Below are positions 1,081-36,962 of a DNA stretch of 47,003 nt, piece after piece. The notes below the pieces were generated by a model that was not told the DNA's origin, ran no database searches, and saw only the letters and a list, made by a program, of their open reading frames with translations. The stretch is taken from assembly GCA_018970425.1 (NCBI GenBank), contig JAGWWK010000001.1, forward strand, positions 1 through 47,003, given 5' to 3'. How positions within the stretch are numbered: the first letter of the stretch is position 1; every line of letters starts with the position of its first letter. Source of the stretch: Patescibacteria group bacterium (lineage in GTDB: Bacteria; Patescibacteriota; Minisyncoccia; Phycocordibacterales; Phycocordibacteraceae). Position numbers and translations under genes: made by a program.

Positions 1081-3546
1081 ATGGCACGTACCCCTGAGCC
1101 GCGCCCTCCTGAGGATGCCGATGCGCGCATTTCCGTTATATCTCAAACGATTACTGATGAAATGCGTCGGTCGTATCTCGACTACGCAATGTCAGTTATT
1201 ACCTCACGCGCCCTCCCAGACGTGCGCGACGGCCTGAAGCCCGTACACCGTCGCATCTTGTACGCGATGCACGAGATGGGTTTGACCTCGACTGCTAAGT
1301 TCCGAAAATCCGCAACGGTGGTTGGTGATGTGCTCGGAAAGTACCATCCGCACGGCGACACCGCAGTGTATGACGCGATGGCCAAGCTCGCGCAGGACTT
1401 TACGACGCGTTACCCGCTCGTCCTCGGTCAGGGAAACTTTGGTTCAGTAGACGGCGACTCGCCGGCTGCCATGCGCTATACGGAGGCAAAGATGTCCCAG
1501 ACCGCGGGTGAGATGCTCCGCGACTTAGAGAAAGAAACGGTTTCTTGGCGCCCGAACTATGACGCAACACGCCGCGAGCCCGAAGTGTTACCTGCCGCGG
1601 CACCCAACATCCTCCTCAACGGCACTCTCGGCATTGCGGTGGGTATGGCCACCAATGTTCCTCCGCACAACCTCAATGAGGTCGTGGATGCAACGGTGCA
1701 CCTGATTGAAAACCCAGGAGCTACGACAGACGATCTGCTTGCCTTTGTGAAAGGGCCCGATTTTCCGACCGGAGCGATAGCATTTAATCAGGCGGACATC
1801 AAACACGCGTACACCTCGGGGCGCGGGCCTGTCACCGTTCGTGGTGAGGCAGAAATAACTGAAGATAAAAAAGGGAACACAATCATTGTTATTACCTCCA
1901 TTCCGTACCGCGTTAATAAGTCTGATCTCATTGAGTCTATAGCGGATCATGTGCGCGAGAAGCGCCTTGAAGGCATTCGCGACATTCGCGACGAGTCTAC
2001 TAAAGATGTGCGCGTTGTGATTGAACTTAAGAACAATGCCCAACCGCAGGCCGTTTTGAATTACTTGTACAAGCACACCCAGCTTGAAGAAGCATTCCAC
2101 TACAACATGGTGATGCTTGTAGACGGTGTTCCTGAAACGCTCTCGCTCGCGGGCATCCTACAGAACTTCATTGACCACCGTGCTGTGGTGGTAAAGCGGC
2201 GTACCGAGTTTGACCTCCGCGTAGCAAAAGACCGCGAGCACATCCTCCTCGGGCTCTCAAAGGCGCTTGACCACATAGATGAAATTATCGCGCTCATCAA
2301 GAAGTCGAAAGATGTAGAAGACGCGCGTGCAGCTCTTATGAAGACCTTCAAGTTTTCCGAGCGGCAGGCCAACGCCATTCTTGATATGCGCCTTCAAAAG
2401 CTCTCGGGCCTTGAGCGCAAGAAGATAGAGGACGAGCTTAAGGAGGTGCAGGCGCTCATTGAAGAACTTGAGGACATTCTCTCCTCGCCGAAGAAGATTA
2501 TGGCCGTCGTGAAGAAGGAGCTCGCCGCACTTAAAGACAAATTGGGCGATGAGCGACGCACGCGCATAGTAAAAGGCGGTGTGAAAAATATGAGCGAGGA
2601 AGACCTGGTGGCCGAGGGTCCGGCGATGCTTACGCTTACCTCGAGCGGCTATGTGAAGCGGACAAATCCATCTGAGTATCGCAAGCAGAATCGCGGCGGC
2701 GTGGGTGTGGTAGACCTCAATACTAAGGACGAAGATTTTGTCACCATATTCCTTGAGGGTTCAACTCACGACCACATCCTCTTCTTTACCGACAAGGGTA
2801 AGGTGTACCAGACGCGTATGTATGAAGTACCCGAGGGTAAACGTGCCACGAAAGGTAAGTCCATAATGAATGTCCTCCCGCTCTCAGCCGAGGAAAAAGT
2901 CACATCTATCGTGACCATGCCAAAAGATATGAAGTCTAAGGCCGAGGCAACAGCATTCATGCTCGTCACGGAGGGTGGTGTTGCAAAGAAGGTGAAAGCA
3001 GAGCAGTTTTCTGATGTGCGCCGTTCGGGAATCATCGCAATGTCACTTCAGGCTGACGACAATCTTATTGCCGCGCTTCCCGTTATGAAGGGCTCTACCG
3101 TACTCCTCACCACCTCACGCGGACAGGCAATCCGCTTTAAGGAGTCTGACATTCGCGAGATGGGTCGCACTGCGGGAGGTGTGCGCGCTATGAAGCTTGT
3201 GGCAAAGGACAGCATTGTTGGGGCAGATGTCGCGCATGACGACGCGGGAGAATTTCTGATCGTTACCAACCTCGGGTACGGCAAGCGTACCAAGGTCAAG
3301 GAGTACAAGATTCAAAAGCGCGGCGGCAGTGGCATCAAGACCGCAAATGTCACACCTAAAACCGGACCGGTGATTGCGGGCAGGATTGTTAATCCAGAGA
3401 TGTCTGAGATTTTAGTCGCCTCACAGAAAGGGCAAGTCATCCGGACCGAGCTTGCGCAGGTGCCAAGTCTCTCACGCGTCACGCAAGGCGTTCGCATAAT
3501 GAAGCTCTACGAGGGCGACAAGATAGCTGCGTTTACGGTATTTTAG
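1081..3546 (+). CDS. gyrA: DNA gyrase subunit A
   Basis: 821 aa. Contains [12 protein letters not shown] (QRDR region), the active-site Tyr motif [10 protein letters not shown], and C-terminal beta-pinwheel repeats. Confidence 0.97.
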
Positions 3547-3547
3547 A

Positions 3548-3575
3548 TTGACTTTTCATTAAATTTTTGTACAAT
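3548..3575 (+). promoter_or_regulatory. Near-consensus sigma70-type promoter TTGACT-N16-TACAAT
   Basis: ttgact 3548-3553, tacaat 3570-3575. An ATG at 3583, 7 nt downstream, opens only a 17-codon ORF (3583-3636). Confidence 0.5.
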
Positions 3576-3651
3576 TACGCACATGGTTTCGGCGCGTTTT
3601 TTTCCGTGCGCTGAAGAATTTGGTAATACTTTCTAATAATTTTTCAAATCC

Positions 3652-4140
3652 GTGGCAACTCCGCAACGAGAAATACCGAGCGATGTCACGAAGGTCATGA
3701 CTCCACTGATCTCGTACTTTGTGTACCGCGCCTTGTCGCAATGGGCTGCATCCGCAGACAGTCTGACCGTAGGATTCATGTCTGAATTTATGGAACCGGT
3801 GGTCGCGGGCAGCATTGGACGTGTGGTGGCGGGCATGGCGCAGGGGTCGGGTCCGTTAGGGAAAGTCGCATCGCTCGTTGTAGGCGCTGGGTATCTTGCA
3901 TATCAAGAGTATGCAGATGTTCAACCGGATCACATTTTCGCGAACTACGCGCTCGGGGCAAGCTACATCTCCGGTGACCCTAGCTGGTTTGTTGAAAAGC
4001 CGTACTATGGCGCACTTGGTACGGCGGTCGCGCTCGGGCTCTGCGCCGGTGGATACTATGCTTCAACCGCGGCGCAGGTAGCAAGTAATCGCTTGTTTGC
4101 ACAGATAGAACAAAGACACAGCAATACTCTGCTAAAATGA
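3652..4140 (+). CDS. Hypothetical Gly/Ala-rich membrane-associated protein; start uncertain (GTG 3652 or ATG 3697)
   Basis: Only long ORF in this interval, co-directional with its neighbours; no family recognised. Confidence 0.4.
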   Translation: MATPQREIPSDVTKVMTPLISYFVYRALSQWAASADSLTVGFMSEFMEPVVAGSIGRVVAGMAQGSGPLGKVASLVVGAGYLAYQEYADVQPDHIFANYALGASYISGDPSWFVEKPYYGALGTAVALGLCAGGYYASTAAQVASNRLFAQIEQRHSNTLLK

Positions 4141-8267: not shown

Positions 8268-8312
8268 AGTATATCAGGATCGCGCTCCGCAGTTTCATAA
8301 CATGGCTCAGTC

Positions 8313-8321
8313 TGGTATACT
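8313..8321 (+). promoter_or_regulatory. Extended -10-like box tggTATACT, 9 nt upstream of tRNA-Lys position +1
   Basis: tatact 8316-8321, tRNA starts at 8331. Confidence 0.5.
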
Positions 8322-8403: not shown

Positions 8404-8410
8404 CTTGATC

Positions 8411-8436
8411 AAAAACCCCATCTGCTTGGGGTTTTT
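8411..8436 (+). terminator. Rho-independent terminator-like hairpin after tRNA-Lys
   Basis: aaaaacccca-tctgc-ttggggttttt. Confidence 0.6.
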
Positions 8437-8444
8437 GTATACAA

Positions 8445-8550
8445 GTCCGAGGCGGAGCGCTGTTTTGCGTCTCGCAAAACCGCGAGCCGGGGTCGCGAAA
8501 CCGACGAACGCAGGTGAGGAGGTATTTGTGACGACGCGTCCGAGGCGGAG
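8445..8550 (+). repeat. tRNA 3'-flank module (E-family, Lys/Leu subtype) bounded by 13-nt direct repeats gtccgaggcggag
   Basis: Direct repeats at 8445-8457 and 8538-8550 (aagtccgaggcgga loosely resembles the tRNA-Lys 3' end aagtgggcgga). Inside are hairpin gttttgcg-tct-cgcaaaac, ggggtcgcgaaacc, and a loop gacgaacgcaggtga related to GAACGAAGGTGA of the other modules. Confidence 0.5.
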
Positions 8551-8585
8551 GCAGGCCGAAGCAGAGTGTGGTAAAACTAACGTAC

Positions 8586-14033: not shown

Positions 14034-14053
14034 AGGGGTAATAGTTACTTTGT

Positions 14054-14407
14054 ATGTCAGACAATCGCTTTGAGAGAGCACGAGGACAGCGCATCGGTAG
14101 AGGTATAAAGATTGGCTTAGCAGCAGCAGTAGCAGTAGATAAAAGTATCTCAGTAGTCACTCAGAAGGAGTCAATTCTCGGCACGGTCATTAATGATATC
14201 TCGCATCGGTTTCACCGTAGCGATGATGATGATAATGACCCCACGGACGCTTCTGTAGGCAGTGGTGGTGGTGCCTCAGCAAGTGGTGCTGCCGAAAATA
14301 TTTCAGAATTTGTTGAAAGCGCTCTCGTCGTGATTGCGGTTCTAGTTCTTGTACATGTACTTTCTTCGCAGCTAGGTCGAAGACACAGCGACCCTCTTCC
14401 TGCATAG
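14054..14407 (+). CDS. Hypothetical protein: acidic low-complexity centre, C-terminal TM
   Basis: 117-aa ORF directly next to the IS right end; no family recognised; composition differs from neighbours. Confidence 0.35.
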   Translation: MSDNRFERARGQRIGRGIKIGLAAAVAVDKSISVVTQKESILGTVINDISHRFHRSDDDDNDPTDASVGSGGGASASGAAENISEFVESALVVIAVLVLVHVLSSQLGRRHSDPLPA

Positions 14408-18002: not shown

Positions 18003-18011
18003 TGGTATAGT
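18003..18011 (+). promoter_or_regulatory. Extended -10-like box tggTATAGT upstream of tRNA-Tyr (about 45-nt spacing)
   Basis: tatagt 18006-18011, tRNA +1 at 18056. Confidence 0.45.
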
Positions 18012-18055
18012 AGACCGGTACGCAACGGGAGAGCGATGCTCAACTGGTGCGGCAT

Positions 18056-18138: not shown

Positions 18139-18215
18139 CCGAGAGAGGGTCGTAGACAACTCGCTTGTATACGACCGAACGAGACGCGCGGGCAAGGCTT
18201 CCTTACCCGGCGCAC
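18129..18215 (+). repeat. Short tRNA 3'-flank module (E-family) bounded by 11-nt direct repeats of the tRNA-Tyr 3' end
   Basis: acccggcgcac at 18129-18139 (inside the tRNA) and 18205-18215. Between them are hairpin ggtcgta-N13-tacgacc and gaacgagacgcgcgggcaag, which resembles the cgcgggcgag end of the Trp/Val modules. Confidence 0.5.
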
Positions 18216-18255: not shown

Positions 18256-18286
18256 ACCCTGATCGGTTTGTGAATAGAAAAATGTC

Positions 18287-18295
18287 TGGTATAGT
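18287..18295 (+). promoter_or_regulatory. Extended -10-like box tggTATAGT, 6 nt upstream of the rpmG ATG
   Basis: tatagt 18290-18295, ATG 18302. Confidence 0.5.
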
Positions 18296-18301
18296 ACTCT
18301 C

Positions 18302-18457
18302 ATGTCGCAAGATAATCTTCTGAGACTCAAGTCGCCGTCGGGAACGATGGTTTATACTCGCAAGAACAAGAAAAAGCTTGCGAACGTCAAGCTCTCTCTC
18401 AAAAAGTTTGATAAAAAGTTGAGAAAACGTGCTGTCTTTAAAGAGGTCAAAAAGTAA
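18302..18457 (+). CDS. rpmG: 50S ribosomal protein L33 (51 aa; below the ORF-track cutoff)
   Basis: Hand translation: MSQDNLLRLKSPSGTMVYTRKNKKKLANVKLSLKKFDKKLRKRAVFKEVKK. It matches the L33 pattern (YxTxKNKR...L.LKKFDP..R.H..FKE.K). Confidence 0.8.
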   Translation: MSQDNLLRLKSPSGTMVYTRKNKKKLANVKLSLKKFDKKLRKRAVFKEVKK

Positions 18458-18463
18458 GGCATA

Positions 18464-18485
18464 ATGACCCCATCGGGGTCATTTT
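18464..18485 (+). terminator. Rho-independent terminator after rpmG
   Basis: atgacccc-atc-ggggtcat followed by tttt. Confidence 0.7.
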
Positions 18486-18495
18486 GATTACCGAA

Positions 18496-18641
18496 GGGCC
18501 TATAAGCAAAGCTTCTAGGCCCGGCACTCGGACGCCATAAGTGCAAGCACTCGCGGCGCTCCTCGTTAGGGCCTATAAGCAAAGCTTCTAGGCCCGTCAC
18601 TCGGACACCATGAGTGCAAGCACTCGCGGCGCTCCTCGTTA
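18496..18641 (+). repeat. Two tandem 73-nt tRNA 5'-flank modules (U-family): tRNA-Trp acceptor-stem minihelix mimic plus conserved 45-nt hairpin
   Basis: Units 18496-18568 and 18569-18641 are 70/73 identical. Each begins gggcctata (the first 9 nt of tRNA-Trp) and folds gggccta-t-aagc-aaa-gctt-c-taggccc-g. Then follows ctcggacgcc..gagtgcaagcactc..ggcgctcc. Confidence 0.85.
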
Positions 18642-18712
18642 GGGCCTATAGTTCAATGGTAGAACGACGGTCTCCAAAACCGTTAATCCAGGTTCGAGTC
18701 CTGGTGGGCCCG
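18642..18712 (+). tRNA. tRNA-Trp (anticodon CCA)
   Basis: gggccta/tgggccc acceptor, anticodon loop ctccaaa, T arm ccaggttcgagtcctgg, discriminator G. Confidence 0.9.
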
Positions 18713-18973
18713 CAGATGCGAAGCATCGAGAGGACTCGAACGCTGAGCGGTGCGAGTCGCTGCGACGAGCCGCGAAGCGGTGCCCAGCAGGTACCCGAAC
18801 GAAGGTGAGGGAACCTGCGCGGGCGAGGACTACGTGGGCTCCGAGATGCGAAGCATCGAGAGGACTCGAACGCTGAGCGGTGCGAGTCGCTGCGACGAGC
18901 CGCGAAGCGGTGCCCAGCAGGTACCCGAACGAAGGTGAGGGAACCTGCGCGGGCGAGTCCTGGTGGGCCCGCA
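18699..18973 (+). repeat. Two identical 113-nt tRNA 3'-flank modules (E-family) in tandem (130-nt period), interleaved with copies of the tRNA-Trp 3' end
   Basis: E copies at 18715-18827 and 18845-18957 are identical. tcctggtgggcccgca occurs at 18699-18714 (in the tRNA) and 18958-18973; a degenerate copy gactacgtgggctccga lies at 18828-18844. Confidence 0.85.
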
Positions 18974-19024
18974 GTACGTTGAGAAACTCGGACGGCTCTT
19001 TTTTCTGGTGTACACTTTTTATAT

Positions 19025-21683: not shown

Positions 21684-21875
21684 GTGCCGGGAGAGAGACT
21701 CGGTCACAACTCGAATACTCACCTTCGTTCGTATTCGGTCGCGACCCCAGCTCGGGCACGCTCGAGACGAGCGGCATAGCGCCCTCCGCTTTTCTCGTCT
21801 CATTCCGGCAATGACAAAGCAAAACCGAAGCAGTGCTTCGGTATTTGATAGTCATAGTGCCGGGAGAGAGACTCG
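21684..21875 (-). repeat. tRNA 3'-flank module (E-family, Lys/Leu subtype, 154 nt) bounded by 19-nt direct repeats of the tRNA-Leu(CAA) 3' end
   Basis: gtgccgggagagagactcg at 21684-21702 and 21857-21875. On the tRNA strand the insert contains gcgtgcccgag, ggggtcgcgacc and hairpin gaatac-GAACGAAGGTGA-gtattc (plus-strand 21713-21736). Confidence 0.75.
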
Positions 21876-34198: not shown

Positions 34199-34262
34199 AA
34201 AGTTCCAATATCAACTATGGTAGCAAAAAATAACCCTTATAAACACTGGACAAAATGTGTTG

Positions 34263-34335
34263 TGGACCCTGCCGGATTCGAACCGGCGACCTCCTCATTG
34301 CAAATGAGGCGCTCTACCAACTAAGCTAAGGGCCC
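34263..34335 (-). tRNA. tRNA-Ala (anticodon UGC), G3:U70 present
   Basis: Reverse complement gggcccttagcttagttggtagagcgcctcatttgcaatgaggaggtcgccggttcgaatccggcagggtcca. Confidence 0.9.
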
Positions 34336-34408
34336 GAGTGAGGAGCGCCGCGAGTGCTTGCACTCATGGCGTCCGAGCGATGGACCCGCACTGTTTCAGT
34401 TTGGGCCT
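34336..34408 (-). repeat. Single 73-nt tRNA 5'-flank module (U-family, Ala type) abutting tRNA-Ala(UGC)
   Basis: The reverse complement is 72/73 identical to the units at 36741-36886 (aggcccaaactgaaacagtgcgggtcca + tcgctcggacgccatgagtgcaagcactcgcggcgctcctcactc). Confidence 0.85.
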
Positions 34409-35397: not shown

Positions 35398-35601
35398 AGT
35401 ATCGCCTGATACTTGGGGCAGCAGCACGCACTGCGTGCGGCAGGAATCGAACGCCGGAGCGATGTGTGATGTTTCATCACACCGCGAGGCGGTGCCCAGG
35501 CCAAGTCCGACCGAAGGGGAGGACGAGAGCCGCGGGCGACTTCCTGTGCTGCCCACCAAGTATCGCCTGATACTTGGGGCAGCAGCACGCACTGCGTGCG
35601 G
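35380..35601 (+). repeat. tRNA 3'-flank module (E-family, 100 nt) bounded by 61-nt direct repeats (last 18 nt of tRNA-Val plus a 43-nt two-hairpin trailer)
   Basis: Direct repeats at 35380-35440 and 35541-35601 are identical. The insert 35441-35540 shares cgaacgc-gagcg, ccgcgaggcggtgcccag, hairpin gtcc-GACCGAAGGGGA-ggac and cgcgggcgac with the Trp module. Confidence 0.85.
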
Positions 35602-35752
35602 TTTGGGGAGAATTTCTTGGTCGGGCCGTAAGCACTTCGTGCTTTCTTCCAGCGCTCGCTCGGAAATATAAAAAAATTTCTATTTCCCTCGCTCGCTCGG
35701 AAGTAGTACAGTAGTACGTGCGGTTTGGGGAGAATTTCTTGGTCGGGCCGTA
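35596..35752 (+). repeat. 35-nt direct repeat (26-nt leader plus the first 9 nt of tRNA-Pro) with a 122-nt period
   Basis: gtgcggtttggggagaatttcttggtcgggccgta at 35596-35630 and 35718-35752. The first copy continues into hairpin agcac-ttc-gtgct and an AT-rich inverted repeat ggaaata..tatttcc. Confidence 0.8.
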
Positions 35753-35817
35753 GTATACCGGTAGTACGTGCGCTTCGGGTGCGTAAAGACTGGGTTCGAT
35801 TCCCAGCGGCCCGACCA
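35744..35817 (+). tRNA. tRNA-Pro (anticodon CGG), CCA encoded
   Basis: cgggccg/cggcccg acceptor, anticodon loop ttcgggt, T arm ctgggttcgattcccag. Confidence 0.9.
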
Positions 35818-35977
35818 AGAAATGCTCCGAGTGTCTGGTAGACACTCGTGGTCGCAGTGCGAGTAAAGACTGGGTTCGATTCCCAGCGGCCCGACCAAGA
35901 AATGCTCCGAGTGTCTGGTAGACACTCGTGGTCGCAGTGCGAGTAAAGACTGGGTTCGATTCCCAGCGGCCCCACCA
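35818..35977 (+). repeat. Two tandem 80-nt units: a 46-nt hairpin spacer plus a copy of the 3' 34 nt of tRNA-Pro(CGG), from the variable region to CCA
   Basis: Units at 35818-35897 and 35898-35977. The spacer agaaatgctccgagtgtctggtagacactcgtggtcgcagtgcgag contains an 8-bp hairpin cgagtgtc/gacactcg. The last copy has cggccccacca instead of cggcccgacca. Confidence 0.85.
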
Positions 35978-36010
35978 AAATGCTATTTTCTAGCTAGAAG
36001 ACAAGCGTCC

Positions 36011-36146
36011 GTCCCATCGTTTCGGGAAGGATTCACGCCAGCGTGGTATCCTCTCCCTACACTCGGGCCGTAAGCCTGGCTTCCGTCCCATCGTTCCGGG
36101 AAGGATTCACGCCAGCGTGGTATCCTCTCCCTACACTCGGGCCGTA
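36011..36146 (+). repeat. 62-nt direct repeat (74-nt period) containing a -10-like box, a leader, and the first 9 nt of tRNA-Pro(GGG)
   Basis: gtcccatcgtt(t/c)cgggaaggattcacgccagcgtggtatcctctccctacactcgggccgta at 36011-36072 and 36085-36146 (61/62 identical). tggtatcct boxes at 36044-36052 and 36118-36126. Confidence 0.85.
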
Positions 36147-36208
36147 GTATACCGGTAGTACGCATGCATGGGGTGCATGTAGACCGGGTTCGATTCCCGG
36201 CGGCCCGA
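36138..36208 (+). tRNA. tRNA-Pro (anticodon GGG)
   Basis: cgggccg/cggcccg acceptor, anticodon loop atggggt, T arm ccgggttcgattcccgg. Confidence 0.9.
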
Positions 36209-36233
36209 CAAATATGCTACAAATGAGTGTACT

Positions 36234-36702: not shown

Positions 36703-36711
36703 TGGTATCCT
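36703..36711 (+). promoter_or_regulatory. Extended -10-like box tggTATCCT upstream of the U-module array and tRNA-Ala(GGC)
   Basis: tatcct 36706-36711; the same box occurs inside the tRNA-Pro(GGG) upstream repeats. Confidence 0.45.
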
Positions 36712-36740: not shown

Positions 36741-36886
36741 GGGCCCAAACTGAAACAGTGCGGGTCCATCGCTCGGACGCCATGAGTGCAAGCACTCGCG
36801 GCGCTCCTCACTCGGGCCCAAACTGAAACAGTGCGGGTCCATCGCTCGGACGCCATGAGTGCAAGCACTCGCGGCGCTCCTCACTC
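36741..36886 (+). repeat. Two identical tandem 73-nt tRNA 5'-flank modules (U-family, Ala type): tRNA-Ala acceptor minihelix mimic (G3:U70 kept) plus conserved 45-nt hairpin
   Basis: Units at 36741-36813 and 36814-36886: gggccc-aaa-ctg-aaa-cag-tgc-gggtcc-a, then tcgctcggacgccatgagtgcaagcactcgcggcgctcctcactc. They abut tRNA-Ala(GGC). Confidence 0.88.
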
Positions 36887-36962
36887 GGGCCCTTAGCTTA
36901 GCTGGTAGAGCGCTTCCATGGCATGGAAGAGGTCAGGAGTTCGAGTCTCCTAGGGTCCACCA
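36887..36962 (+). tRNA. tRNA-Ala (anticodon GGC), G3:U70, CCA encoded
   Basis: gggccct/agggtcc acceptor, anticodon loop atggcat, T arm aggagttcgagtctcct. Confidence 0.9.

Follow-up and report, generated by a model that had tools for sequence, protein, structure and literature searches.

In a 47,003 nt stretch of DNA from a Patescibacteria group bacterium (GenBank assembly GCA_018970425.1, contig JAGWWK010000001.1, positions 1–47,003 of the forward strand; hereafter the window), in which ARAGORN and Rfam place 14 real tRNA genes, a tandem array of short hairpin-forming modules lies immediately upstream of tRNA-Trp(cca). Tandem Repeats Finder reported a period of 73 nt between 18495 and 18650, with 2.1 copies and 96 % matches. 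The two units of this array (Table 1) are identical at 70 of 73 positions, differing at 18524 (G/T), 18534 (G/A) and 18539 (A/G), and the second abuts the first nucleotide of the tRNA gene with no gap. Whilst ARAGORN placed this tRNA at 18642–18713, Rfam ended it at 18712 (18642–18712, 72.5 bits). An earlier reading made without database searches (the sequence-only reading) had described these tandem 73 nt units, and its figures of 70/73 and, for the comparison with tRNA-Ala below, 39/45 were found to be exact.

Both units open with GGGCCTATA, which equals nt 1–9 of tRNA-Trp, and so begin with one strand of a 27 nt minihelix (GGGCCTA-T-AAGC-AAA-GCTT-C-TAGGCCC), after which come a 7 nt linker, a 33 nt bulged hairpin (GGACGCC-AT-GAGTG-CAAG-CACTC-GC-GGCG-(C)-TCC) and a 6 nt linker, TCGTTA. 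Minihelix and hairpin are predicted to fold alike as RNA and as DNA, in agreement with the fold first described, and the insert as a whole amounts to 64 nt of non-coding hairpins between direct repeats of the tRNA end. The sequence-only reading had further held that both strands of the acceptor stem are reproduced, followed by G-CA. The 5′ arm is indeed copied, but the 3′ arm, TAGGCCC, is the complement of that arm, the tRNA's own being TGGGCCC (with a U6–G67 wobble), and the nucleotides that follow read G-GCA in unit 1 and G-TCA in unit 2.

The same junction was recovered in a Logan contig of the same strain (L001, SRR32006835; here and below, L-numbers denote individual contigs and loci), which is identical to the window as far as ...CTAGGCCCG and ends exactly at the first position at which the Trp units vary. 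Such a stop is expected of a branch between two non-identical copies, and the three differences allow an assembler to separate them. It is confirmed that the Trp array, as assembled, is a real array of two units, with a copy number of at least two. Logan contigs of the same strain were also considered as a copy check for the array before tRNA-Ala(ggc) and rejected for that purpose, as the contigs break at repeats.

Elsewhere in the window the hairpin (GGACRCCATRAGTGCAAGCACTCGCGGCGCTCC) was found at tRNA-Ala as well. Exactly five copies exist, the number originally given, against a chance expectation of 0; two stand before tRNA-Trp, two before tRNA-Ala(ggc) and one, on the other strand, before tRNA-Ala(tgc). 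Over their last 45 nt the Trp and Ala units are identical at 39/45 and 40/45 positions, the first of these being precisely the similarity claimed beforehand, and the Ala minihelix (GGGCCC..GGGTCC-A) retains G3:U70 and A73. A different hairpin, type B, precedes tRNA-Pro(ggg), where the distal unit (36005–36063) is truncated and lacks the direct copy. Furthermore, a mirror-image module was detected at the 3′ edge of tRNA-Tyr; on the minus strand it reads GTGCGCCGGG-T-AAGG-AAG-CCTT-G-CCCGCGC, linker, hairpin GGTCGTA..TACGACC, linker and the reverse complement of tRNA-Tyr, and its first 11 nt are a repeat of the gene end (GTGCGCCGGGT).

A module family at the ends of tRNA genes

One scan each of genome and metagenome collections with a degenerate hairpin pattern returned five true matches, every one with the foot of the hairpin 6 nt upstream of a tRNA and with a minihelix matching that tRNA (Table 1); the genome scan gave three further chance matches, which had no tRNAs. 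The minihelix arms at L004, L006, L007/L009 and L008 are GCCCGCG/CCCGGGC, GCCCGGG/CCCGGGC, CGGGGCG/CGCCCCG and GCCCCCG/CGGGGGC, respectively, and an inner hairpin T-AAGN-AAA-NCTT is common to all of them. Comparison with ClpB homologues puts the window within Patescibacteria, close to Candidatus Kaiserbacteria, and orthologous clpB–rpmG–tRNA-Trp loci of relatives were also retrieved. At the locus L010 (ClpB 89 % identical) the tRNA-Trp allele is a different one (GGGCGAT/ATCGCCC) and has one module in front of it, with a minihelix that matches this allele and a hairpin two compensatory double changes away from that of the window. Thus the proposal that the hairpin is constant, with the minihelix matching whichever tRNA follows, holds at tRNA-Leu(taa), tRNA-Leu(caa), tRNA-Pro(tgg), the L008 tRNA and this other tRNA-Trp allele. 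In L011 the tRNA-Trp gene is the same as that of the window (72/72) and the module is absent, and the tRNA-Trp sites of L012 and L019 are likewise without one; the empty-site call for L012 rests on the sequence after a run of N at 14038–14136 (GCA_038106525.1), which marks a gap in the assembly a short way upstream of tRNA-Trp and has a copy of the rpmG start on either side.

Two scripts and a covariance model, R1, revealed further members, extending the hairpin types to A′, A″, A‴, B, B′, C and D at tRNA-Trp, Cys, Leu(tag), Pro and Lys: types B and B′ occur at tRNA-Pro (window and L009), type C at tRNA-Cys (L010) and type D at tRNA-Leu(tag) (L018). Incomplete forms comprise a solo hairpin without minihelix at tRNA-Cys of L014 and, near tRNA-Lys of L018, a displaced module followed by a 5′ fragment of the tRNA. 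In total the family was found at at least 10 different tRNA genes, with six hairpin sequence types. All R1 matches in 199 kb lie at, or no more than 170 nt from, tRNA genes, and 45.5 kb of related DNA without tRNA genes gave no match; this control consisted of AtpB-anchored loci, where synteny to the tRNA cluster is not conserved. The sequence-only reading had named modules at non-tRNA sites, with minihelices that do not match, as evidence that would count against it, and a single degenerate case was seen, at L004 2752–2824, where an inverted pair flanks a hairpin without a tRNA, 170 nt upstream of tRNA-Cys.

All types present the same order of parts toward the tRNA: direct copy, AAG..CTT mini-hairpin, inverted copy, linker, hairpin and 6 nt linker. 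The direct copy comprises 6–11 nt of the tRNA gene end, repeated on the far side of every complete module (11 nt in the mirror modules), and is followed by a T, by AAG-N(3–9)-CTT and by one unpaired base, never an A opposite the T. The linker after the inverted copy is pyrimidine-rich, ∼6–8 nt in length (TCRCTC); the exchangeable hairpin of ∼33 nt has G-R-A / T-Y-C at its base, one bulged C and a C-R-A-G loop; and the last linker, TCRYTN, sets 6 nt between the hairpin and tRNA +1. The direct copy pairs with the inverted one in an acceptor-like minihelix of 7 bp, a mismatch and 4 bp, or ∼12 layers. The single bulged C and the unpaired linkers of 6–7 nt are conserved in types A to D, whilst the mirror copies lack the bulge. 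Snap-back copying was rejected as the source of the inverted arm, given that the base opposite T8 is never A.

Structural conservation was measured on an alignment of 12 modules. Paired cells amounted to 93 %, as opposed to 69 % in column shuffles, changes on both sides were present in 21 of 23 pairs, and none of 500 shuffles reached any observed measure. Controls with slid partners gave 36–53 % paired, and RNAalifold arrived independently at the same structure. Hairpins in the same 33 nt register, with identities of only 13–29 of 33 positions, retain all 12 pairs. These data show that the hairpin structure has been kept through compensatory changes.

The minihelix, for its part, follows the local tRNA. 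Across 12 sense modules, nt 1–7 match the module's own tRNA at 5–7 of 7 positions (mean 6.5), compared with 3.1 on average for other tRNAs; the range given covers the sense modules, and in this target-match table three mirror rows are out of register. With 0–2 changes, the 3′ arm corresponds either to that of the tRNA or to the complement of the module's 5′ arm. Minihelix arms carry mismatches, however, and the base after the 3′ arm is mostly T whatever the discriminator of the tRNA, as in the Leu, Pro and L010-Trp modules, the tRNAs of which have A or G; beyond it, these modules read TCR and not CCA. As the discriminator is not copied and CCA is missing, the minihelix is not a faithful mimic of tRNA identity, and the reproduction of discriminator and CA that had been proposed from the Trp units does not extend to the family. 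The equality of unit length and tRNA length, noted at the same time, is probably coincidental, unit lengths in the family being 71–76 nt. In two-module arrays it is the distal unit that is degenerate (B′ in L009; truncated B at tRNA-Pro(ggg) of the window).

Table 1. Positions of the modules and adjoining genes in the window, and loci recovered with the hairpin pattern
Feature	Position	Strand	Remarks
Module unit 1, type-A hairpin	18496–18568	+	Covariance model R1, 85.5 bits; repeat and fold analysis
Unit 1, direct copy of tRNA-Trp nt 1–9	18496–18504	+	
Unit 1, inner hairpin	18504–18514	+	AAGC-AAA-GCTT
Unit 1, inverted copy	18516–18522	+	TAGGCCC
Unit 1, pyrimidine-rich linker	18523–18529	+	
Unit 1, bulged hairpin	18530–18562	+	33 nt
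Unit 1, last linker	18563–18568	+	TCGTTA, 6 nt
Module unit 2	18569–18641	+	70/73 identical to unit 1; R1, 89.3 bits
Unit 2, minihelix	18569–18595	+	
Unit 2, hairpin	18603–18635	+	
Unit 2, last linker	18636–18641	+	TCGTTA; abuts tRNA +1
tRNA-Trp(cca)	18642–18713	+	Modules at its 5′ edge; arms GGGCCTA / TGGGCCC; CCA not encoded; ARAGORN, Rfam
Two type-A modules before tRNA-Ala(ggc) (36887–36962)	36741–36886	+	73 nt each, identical as assembled; minihelix GGGCCC-AA-ACTG-AAA-CAGT-GC-GGGTCC
One type-A module before tRNA-Ala(tgc) (34262–34335)	34336–34408	−	72/73 identical to the Ala(ggc) units; direct copy without first G
Type-B modules before tRNA-Pro(ggg) (36138–36209)	36005–36137	+	Proximal unit, 36064–36137, complete
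Mirror-image module at tRNA-Tyr 3′ edge	18141–18215	−	R1, 29.9 bits, E-value 4e-5, match at 18141–18212
rpmG (L33) and terminator-like hairpin, upstream neighbours of the Trp array	18302–18488	+	rpmG 18302–18457; hairpin 18464–18482, then T run
L004, hairpin			6 nt upstream of tRNA-Leu(taa)
L006, hairpin			6 nt upstream of tRNA-Leu(caa)
L007 / L009, hairpin			6 nt upstream of tRNA-Pro(tgg)
L008, hairpin			6 nt upstream of a tRNA truncated at the contig end

With regard to the surroundings of the modules, the rpmG–tRNA-Trp order was also seen in L010–L012 and L019. An exact look-up of the L33 protein returned no entry. The sole promoter-like extended −10 box upstream of the Trp array (TGGTATAGT, at approximately 18286–18297) is that of rpmG. 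Boxes of this kind, TGGTATAnT, recur in the window at 18006–18014, 8305–8313 and 36703–36711 (TGGTATCCT, before the Ala array) and in the tRNA-Tyr 5′ flanks of L010, L011 and L013; they stand 7–44 nt 5′ of tRNA and rpmG starts, have no clear −35 element and probably represent the local promoter type. The hairpin itself was rejected as a promoter or terminator, having neither −35/−10 boxes nor a U tract.

Other repeats border the tRNA-Pro genes. At 35595–35752 a 36 nt direct repeat (CGTGCGGTTTGGGGAGAATTTCTTGGTCGGGCCGTA) brackets an irregular module before tRNA-Pro(cgg), consisting of CGGGCCGTA|AGCAC-TTCG-GTGCT and an A/T-rich hairpin between two CTCGCTC linkers, with no matching inverted arm; after it stands a tRNA-Pro 5′ half in diverged form. 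At 35783–35978 a repeat with a period of 80 holds 2.5 copies of a segment made up of the 3′ third of tRNA-Pro(cgg), with its variable loop, T-arm, 3′ acceptor arm and CCA, and a 45 nt hairpin spacer; one copy of this repeat (35823–35897) was miscalled by ARAGORN as 'tRNA-Ala(cgc)' and has no Rfam call. An analogous repeat of period 40 lies 3′ of tRNA-Pro(tgg) in L007 and L009.

Distribution and orientation of the modules

Type-A hairpins with their tails are 45/46 identical between the window and L004 or L006, loci that are 69–70 % identical to the window in coding DNA and 78–84 % in tRNAs. Over 13.7 kb, L009 has no other detectable similarity to the window. L010, the closest of the module-bearing relatives, possesses a more diverged hairpin than L004 or L006. 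Moreover, filled and empty sites occur among genomes with ClpB 84–90 % identical, and the rbfA/tRNA-Cys site, empty in the window, is occupied in L010 by a full module, in L014 by a solo hairpin and in both L011 and L018 by a homing endonuclease gene. The modules of the two tRNA-Ala genes of the window, identical at 72 of 73 positions, lie on opposite strands. On these alignments, our comparisons show a hairpin identity that is decoupled from genome distance, and a presence that varies among close relatives. Regarding the origin of one of the compared loci, L004 (CAZVGP010000051.1) comes from a record titled Candidatus Saccharibacteria; its rbfA–IF2 region is syntenic with that of the window, with IF-2 proteins 56–78 % identical, and the placement may need checking.

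Matches to R1 were also obtained at 3′ flanks, namely at tRNA-Tyr (window and L019) and tRNA-Leu(taa) (L013), on the strand opposite to the tRNA. These mirror modules are complete and point into the gene, with an 11 nt gene-end copy, AAGG-AAG-CCTT, inverted copy, pyrimidine linkers and a CAAG/CGAG loop. At all three loci GUAAG..CUU, the pyrimidine linkers and the CAAG/CGAG loop are retained in the element's own sense, and hence antisense to the tRNA transcript. Because CAAG and the linkers are non-palindromic, their conservation in this sense is informative, and it indicates that the modules take their orientation from the tRNA gene end and not from the transcript. Element-sense copies were in addition found on both strands no more than 2.5 kb apart, so that orientation is not set by the direction of replication either. 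With respect to transcription units the modules are internal, located between the extended −10 boxes TGGTATAnT and the tRNA, or between the tRNA and a terminator.

The tRNA genes at these sites vary as well. In genomes with ClpB 84–90 % identical, the rpmG-linked locus holds one or the other of two tRNA-Trp alleles that share only ∼75 % identity (55/73; window 18642–18713, L011 11937–12008, L010 14706–14778, L012 14343–14414 and L019 5834–5905). This split, together with the exact identity of the window and L011 genes, suggests that the tRNA gene was replaced by transfer. Free-standing homing endonuclease genes (LAGLIDADG, HNH and GIY-YIG) lie directly 5′ of tRNAs at L011 1818–2555, L013 78–725, L018 3168–3704 and 3867–4595, and L012 5001–5369, some of them entering the first 10–47 nt of the tRNA. 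Their sites, 5′ of tRNA-Cys, Leu(tag), Lys and Leu(taa), are flanks that have modules in other genomes. The possibility that modules are simply endonuclease scars was tried and rejected, as the boundaries of the homing endonuclease inserts in L011 and L018 have no module-like ends. In L009, a XerC/D-like tyrosine recombinase gene (1593–3866) is interrupted by an intein with a LAGLIDADG domain, and genes for a CCA-adding enzyme and a YraN-like nuclease are found close to the module-bearing tRNA-Pro.

A second family of elements, termed X, was observed on the 3′ sides of tRNAs, with a conserved core GGTGCCCAG ... GAACGAAGGTGAG and covarying stems. In the window these are located at 18715–18974 (two 130 nt copies after tRNA-Trp), 35398–35540 (after tRNA-Val) and, on the minus strand, 21685–21856 (after tRNA-Leu(caa)); elsewhere they were seen at L010 14779–14925, L011 12009–12170 and 10560–10710, and L012 14415–14540 and 12844–13000. 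Each holds an 11–12 nt segment antisense to the T-arm of the local tRNA (AGGACTCGAAC for Trp, AGGAATCGAAC for Val and GGATTYGAAC for Tyr) and a distal direct repeat of the last 17–20 nt of the tRNA, and so shares with the 73 nt modules the logic of a direct plus an inverted copy, on a larger scale. No Rfam or viral match to X elements was obtained, and the X-core pattern gave 29 chance matches in viral contigs, none of them near a tRNA. A degenerate X-like stretch (..CGAACGCAGGTGAGG..) is present 3′ of tRNA-Lys at 8405–8560, between two copies of GTCCGAGGCGGAG that resemble a tRNA 3′ end without being equal to one.

Explanations for the modules

Our preferred explanation, to which we give roughly even credence, is that the modules are a non-autonomous insertion element, defined by structure, that nests at the outer edges of tRNA genes in Kaiserbacteria-like Patescibacteria. 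Amongst the roles listed by the sequence-only reading, that of a small tRNA-targeting mobile module fits best, given the patchy presence of the modules and the decoupling of hairpin identity from genome distance. Insertion would act on DNA, directed by the end of the tRNA gene and probably on a folded single strand, and the direct and inverted copies would form a duplex that mimics the target. Cutting would be carried out in trans by a nuclease or recombinase encoded elsewhere, for which the homing endonucleases of the same tRNA flanks, or an HUH enzyme or tyrosine recombinase, are candidates. The module's own copy of the gene end (nt 1–9) would leave the tRNA intact; RNase P, on the 5′ side, and 3′ trimming would remove the module from the precursor, and it may be tolerated because tRNA processing thereby renders it harmless. 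The minihelix would tie up the redundant acceptor strand and so keep it from competing with the tRNA's own stem. Finally, 9 nt direct repeats set 73 nt apart could give rise both to slipped-strand duplication, as in the Trp and Ala pairs, and to precise loss, leaving empty sites.

A number of observations weigh against this explanation. No tested model accounts for a direct plus an inverted copy of the new target after a jump. Donor-type arms or a broken tRNA would be expected from simple site-specific recombination or target-site duplication, and plain site-specific recombination was rejected on these grounds as a route to new tRNAs; target-site duplication by a DDE transposase was likewise rejected, as terminal inverted repeats are missing and the internal inverted copy would be left unexplained. 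The exact junctions are inferred, the filled and empty alleles compared being from different genomes. The conserved dimensions of the minihelix (∼12 layers) and the fixed 6 nt spacing are also consistent with recognition by RNase P or RNase Z, and in the element's sense there are 6 G.T wobbles as opposed to 2–3 A.C mismatches, which leaves function as RNA or as DNA undecided. Searches with R1 covered ∼250 kb of related sequence in all.

Nor was a mobilising enzyme found. The open reading frames checked in the window, by Pfam (28.9–46.5 kb) or by synteny, encode housekeeping functions; Pfam searches of 20 of them (28.9–46.5 kb) and of 10 open reading frames of L009 revealed no transposase, reverse transcriptase or dedicated integrase, and the only candidate enzymes at related loci are the homing endonucleases and the Xer-like recombinase of L009. 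Neither the open reading frames of the window, which is 47 kb of a 213 kb contig, nor the called genes of related loci include a RAYT (Y1 HUH) gene, and no integron integrase was present in the window or in loci L010–L019. In viral contigs the hairpin pattern had 0 matches and the inner-hairpin pattern five chance matches, all in coding DNA, whilst a blastn search of the array against phages and plasmids returned no match.

A wider form of the preferred explanation would unite the modules and the X elements in a new class of protein-less, structure-guided insertion elements with the target encoded in a fold-back copy. The direct and inverted pair would then be a programmable guide or target mimic for an enzyme of a host or parasite, able to retarget the element to any tRNA and to rebuild the gene. 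We regard this as unlikely, though not negligible.

Alternatively, the modules could be a functional part of the precursor tRNA, serving as leader or trailer RNA, as punctuation for RNase P or RNase Z, as an insulator or switch for the acceptor stem, or as small RNAs or decoys; this, too, we think improbable, though it deserves to be taken seriously. The modules should be transcribed, lying as they do between promoter-like −10 boxes and the tRNA or between the tRNA and a terminator, the minihelix, with ∼12 stacked layers, resembles the acceptor/T-arm stack, and a constant 6 nt separates the hairpin foot from +1. The hairpin has been maintained by compensatory changes over long divergence, the Ala minihelix has G3:U70 and A73, and several G.U pairs exist in the transcribed sense. 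In disagreement with a role in the transcript, however, the loop and linker motifs of the mirror modules are conserved opposite to it, the discriminator is not conserved and there is no CCA, arms are mismatched and older copies decay. Close relatives moreover have orthologous tRNAs without a module, including the identical tRNA-Trp of L011, and hairpin identity does not track genome relatedness. Rfam yielded tRNAs only at the gathering threshold and, at E-values up to 10, nothing over 18496–18641 or the Ala and Pro modules, with only noise matches on tRNAs; no family match supports an RNA role. As such, the RNA-substrate and decoy roles suggested beforehand (RNase P, CCA-adding, aminoacylation and toxin) are weakened by the missing discriminator and CCA, by arm mismatches and decay, and by the antisense mirror modules.

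Rather doubtful is the view that the modules are folded single-strand recombination sites, comparable with attC or with attP(+) of the CTX phage, at which a tyrosine recombinase swaps hairpins or tRNA alleles. Inverted copy, linker, bulged hairpin, linker and tRNA 5′ arm do form an imperfect hairpin of ∼60 nt, with a 7 bp outer box, unpaired spacers of 6–7 nt and an inner box with one extrahelical base, in which structure outweighs sequence. Unrelated hairpins on orthologous scaffolds (tRNA-Tyr in the window and L019; tRNA-Cys in L010 and L014) would be explained by such swapping, as would the 75 % identical tRNA-Trp alleles at the same locus in genomes with ClpB 84–90 % identical, and the inverted pair of L004 2752–2824 surrounds a hairpin with no tRNA. 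Set against this, RYYYAAC/GTTRRRY core sites, an integron integrase and cassette open reading frames are missing, a double-stranded circle of 73 bp is implausible, and the sole recombinase seen is the ordinary Xer-like gene of L009; the upstream direct copy and the AAG..CTT hairpin would, furthermore, have no role.

We consider it quite improbable that the modules are passive by-products, that is, immobile and functionless partial tandem duplications of tRNAs made by slippage or break repair. Partial tRNA duplications abound, as in the three 3′ thirds of tRNA-Pro with a period of 80 and the tRNA-Pro 5′ half fragment, every unit is flanked by direct repeats, and the homing endonuclease genes beside tRNAs suggest frequent breaks. 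Slippage, which the sequence-only reading had played down, is still the simplest explanation of tandem copy number. The same AAG..CTT, linkers, bulged-C base and 6 nt spacing at at least 10 tRNAs would not result from independent accidents, and neither 45/46-identical hairpins in genomes ∼70 % identical elsewhere nor the compensatory evolution of the hairpin is accounted for. One variant offered beforehand, relics of internally deleted tandem tRNAs, is rejected on the grounds that the AAG..CTT inner hairpin is common to modules at unrelated tRNAs. An assembly artefact, such as a repeat wrongly collapsed or expanded, or a chimeric junction in a metagenome contig, is most improbable even though short-read assemblies break at these repeats, Logan contigs stop within the Trp array and within tRNA-Ala(ggc), and the two identical Ala units are known in their number only as assembled, because the Trp units differ at three positions, L001 reproduces the junction and first unit, and the architecture recurs in at least 10 independent assemblies (JGI, NCBI, ENA and Logan).

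Relation to known systems and significance

Amongst bacterial repeats, the modules come close to REP, REPIN and BIME sequences, which are associated with RAYT proteins (IS200/IS605-like Y1 HUH). Both are short, non-coding, imperfect palindromes with conserved flank motifs, in which structure is kept more than sequence, both are non-autonomous, and both form clusters of alternating hairpin types with fixed linkers. However, the module flank is TCRCTC or TCRYTN with no GTAG, no RAYT or TnpA gene was seen among the open reading frames of the window or at related loci, and the modules occur only at tRNA gene ends, not genome-wide, and take their orientation from the tRNA, not from the strand of replication. 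In IS608, a short guide beside a hairpin base-pairs with the flanking target. The pairing of the inverted copy with the adjacent gene end resembles this arrangement, but in the modules the guide-like segment, of 7 nt, comes together with a direct copy of the target.

The likeness to attC and CTX attP(+), which is partial, consists in the imperfect hairpin of ∼60 nt with its outer box, unpaired spacers and, in types A to D, an extrahelical base, in the formation of arrays, in the conservation of fold over sequence and in a folded strand that imitates a duplex target. Unlike attC, the outer box of the modules consists of the local tRNA's acceptor sequence, a different one at every tRNA, neither IntI nor cassettes are present, and the length is 73 nt. 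Integrative elements that use tRNA genes as att sites also have a direct repeat of the tRNA end on both sides and rebuild the gene from the element's copy, but the modules have an insert of ∼64 nt without integrase or cargo, their commonest target is the 5′ end, and an inverted target copy lies inside. They also differ from MITEs (miniature transposable elements with terminal inverted repeats), as the insert opens with AAGC.. and closes with ..TCGTTA, which are not inverted repeats of each other, and as phages, plasmids and viral contigs yielded no parent element.

Outside bacteria, GC clusters of yeast mitochondria, double-hairpin elements and repetitive hairpin-forming elements are tiny, protein-less and made of one or two hairpins, with putative target duplications, a patchy occurrence, rapid merger and shuffling of units, and exchange between species (PMC4478555, PMC2800124); endonucleases encoded elsewhere have been proposed as their mobilisers (PMC4478555). 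In contrast to the modules, these are organellar, do not lie at tRNA ends and lack a tRNA-like folded copy of the target. Lastly, tRNA minihelices and processing signals (substrates of RNase P, RNase Z and the CCA enzyme, the G3:U70 microhelix of AlaRS, and mascRNA) share with the modules the 7 bp stem, the ∼12 layers and a location inside the tRNA precursor, and the Ala copy has G3:U70 and A73; unlike them, the modules have no T-loop or CCA, do not conserve the discriminator, contain mismatched arms and exist as antisense mirror copies. The modules thus resemble small mobile hairpin repeats, yet the features that define each named family set them apart from it. Literature searches gave no description of such modules, and no counterpart to the target-derived fold-back minihelix, the tie to tRNA ends or the mirror use of both ends was found in the literature searched.

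For annotation, the modules explain odd repeats at tRNA flanks, spurious tRNA calls and contig breaks in Patescibacteria assemblies, and in evolutionary terms they suggest that allele replacement, and competition with homing endonucleases, has its hot spots at tRNA loci. How a 64 nt insert gains both strands of the acceptor stem of a new target is a puzzle, and one that could reveal a new activity for structure- or guide-directed insertion of DNA; known prokaryotic repeats (REP, MITEs and attC) do not have a folded copy of their own target, as the modules do. Should the modules instead act as RNA, tRNA leaders would be a source of acceptor-stem minihelices in bacteria, a matter of interest to the fields of tRNA processing and aminoacylation. 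If, on the other hand, our preferred explanation of an insertion element is true, even the very small genomes of candidate phyla would carry miniature elements that use the edges of tRNA genes as safe harbours.

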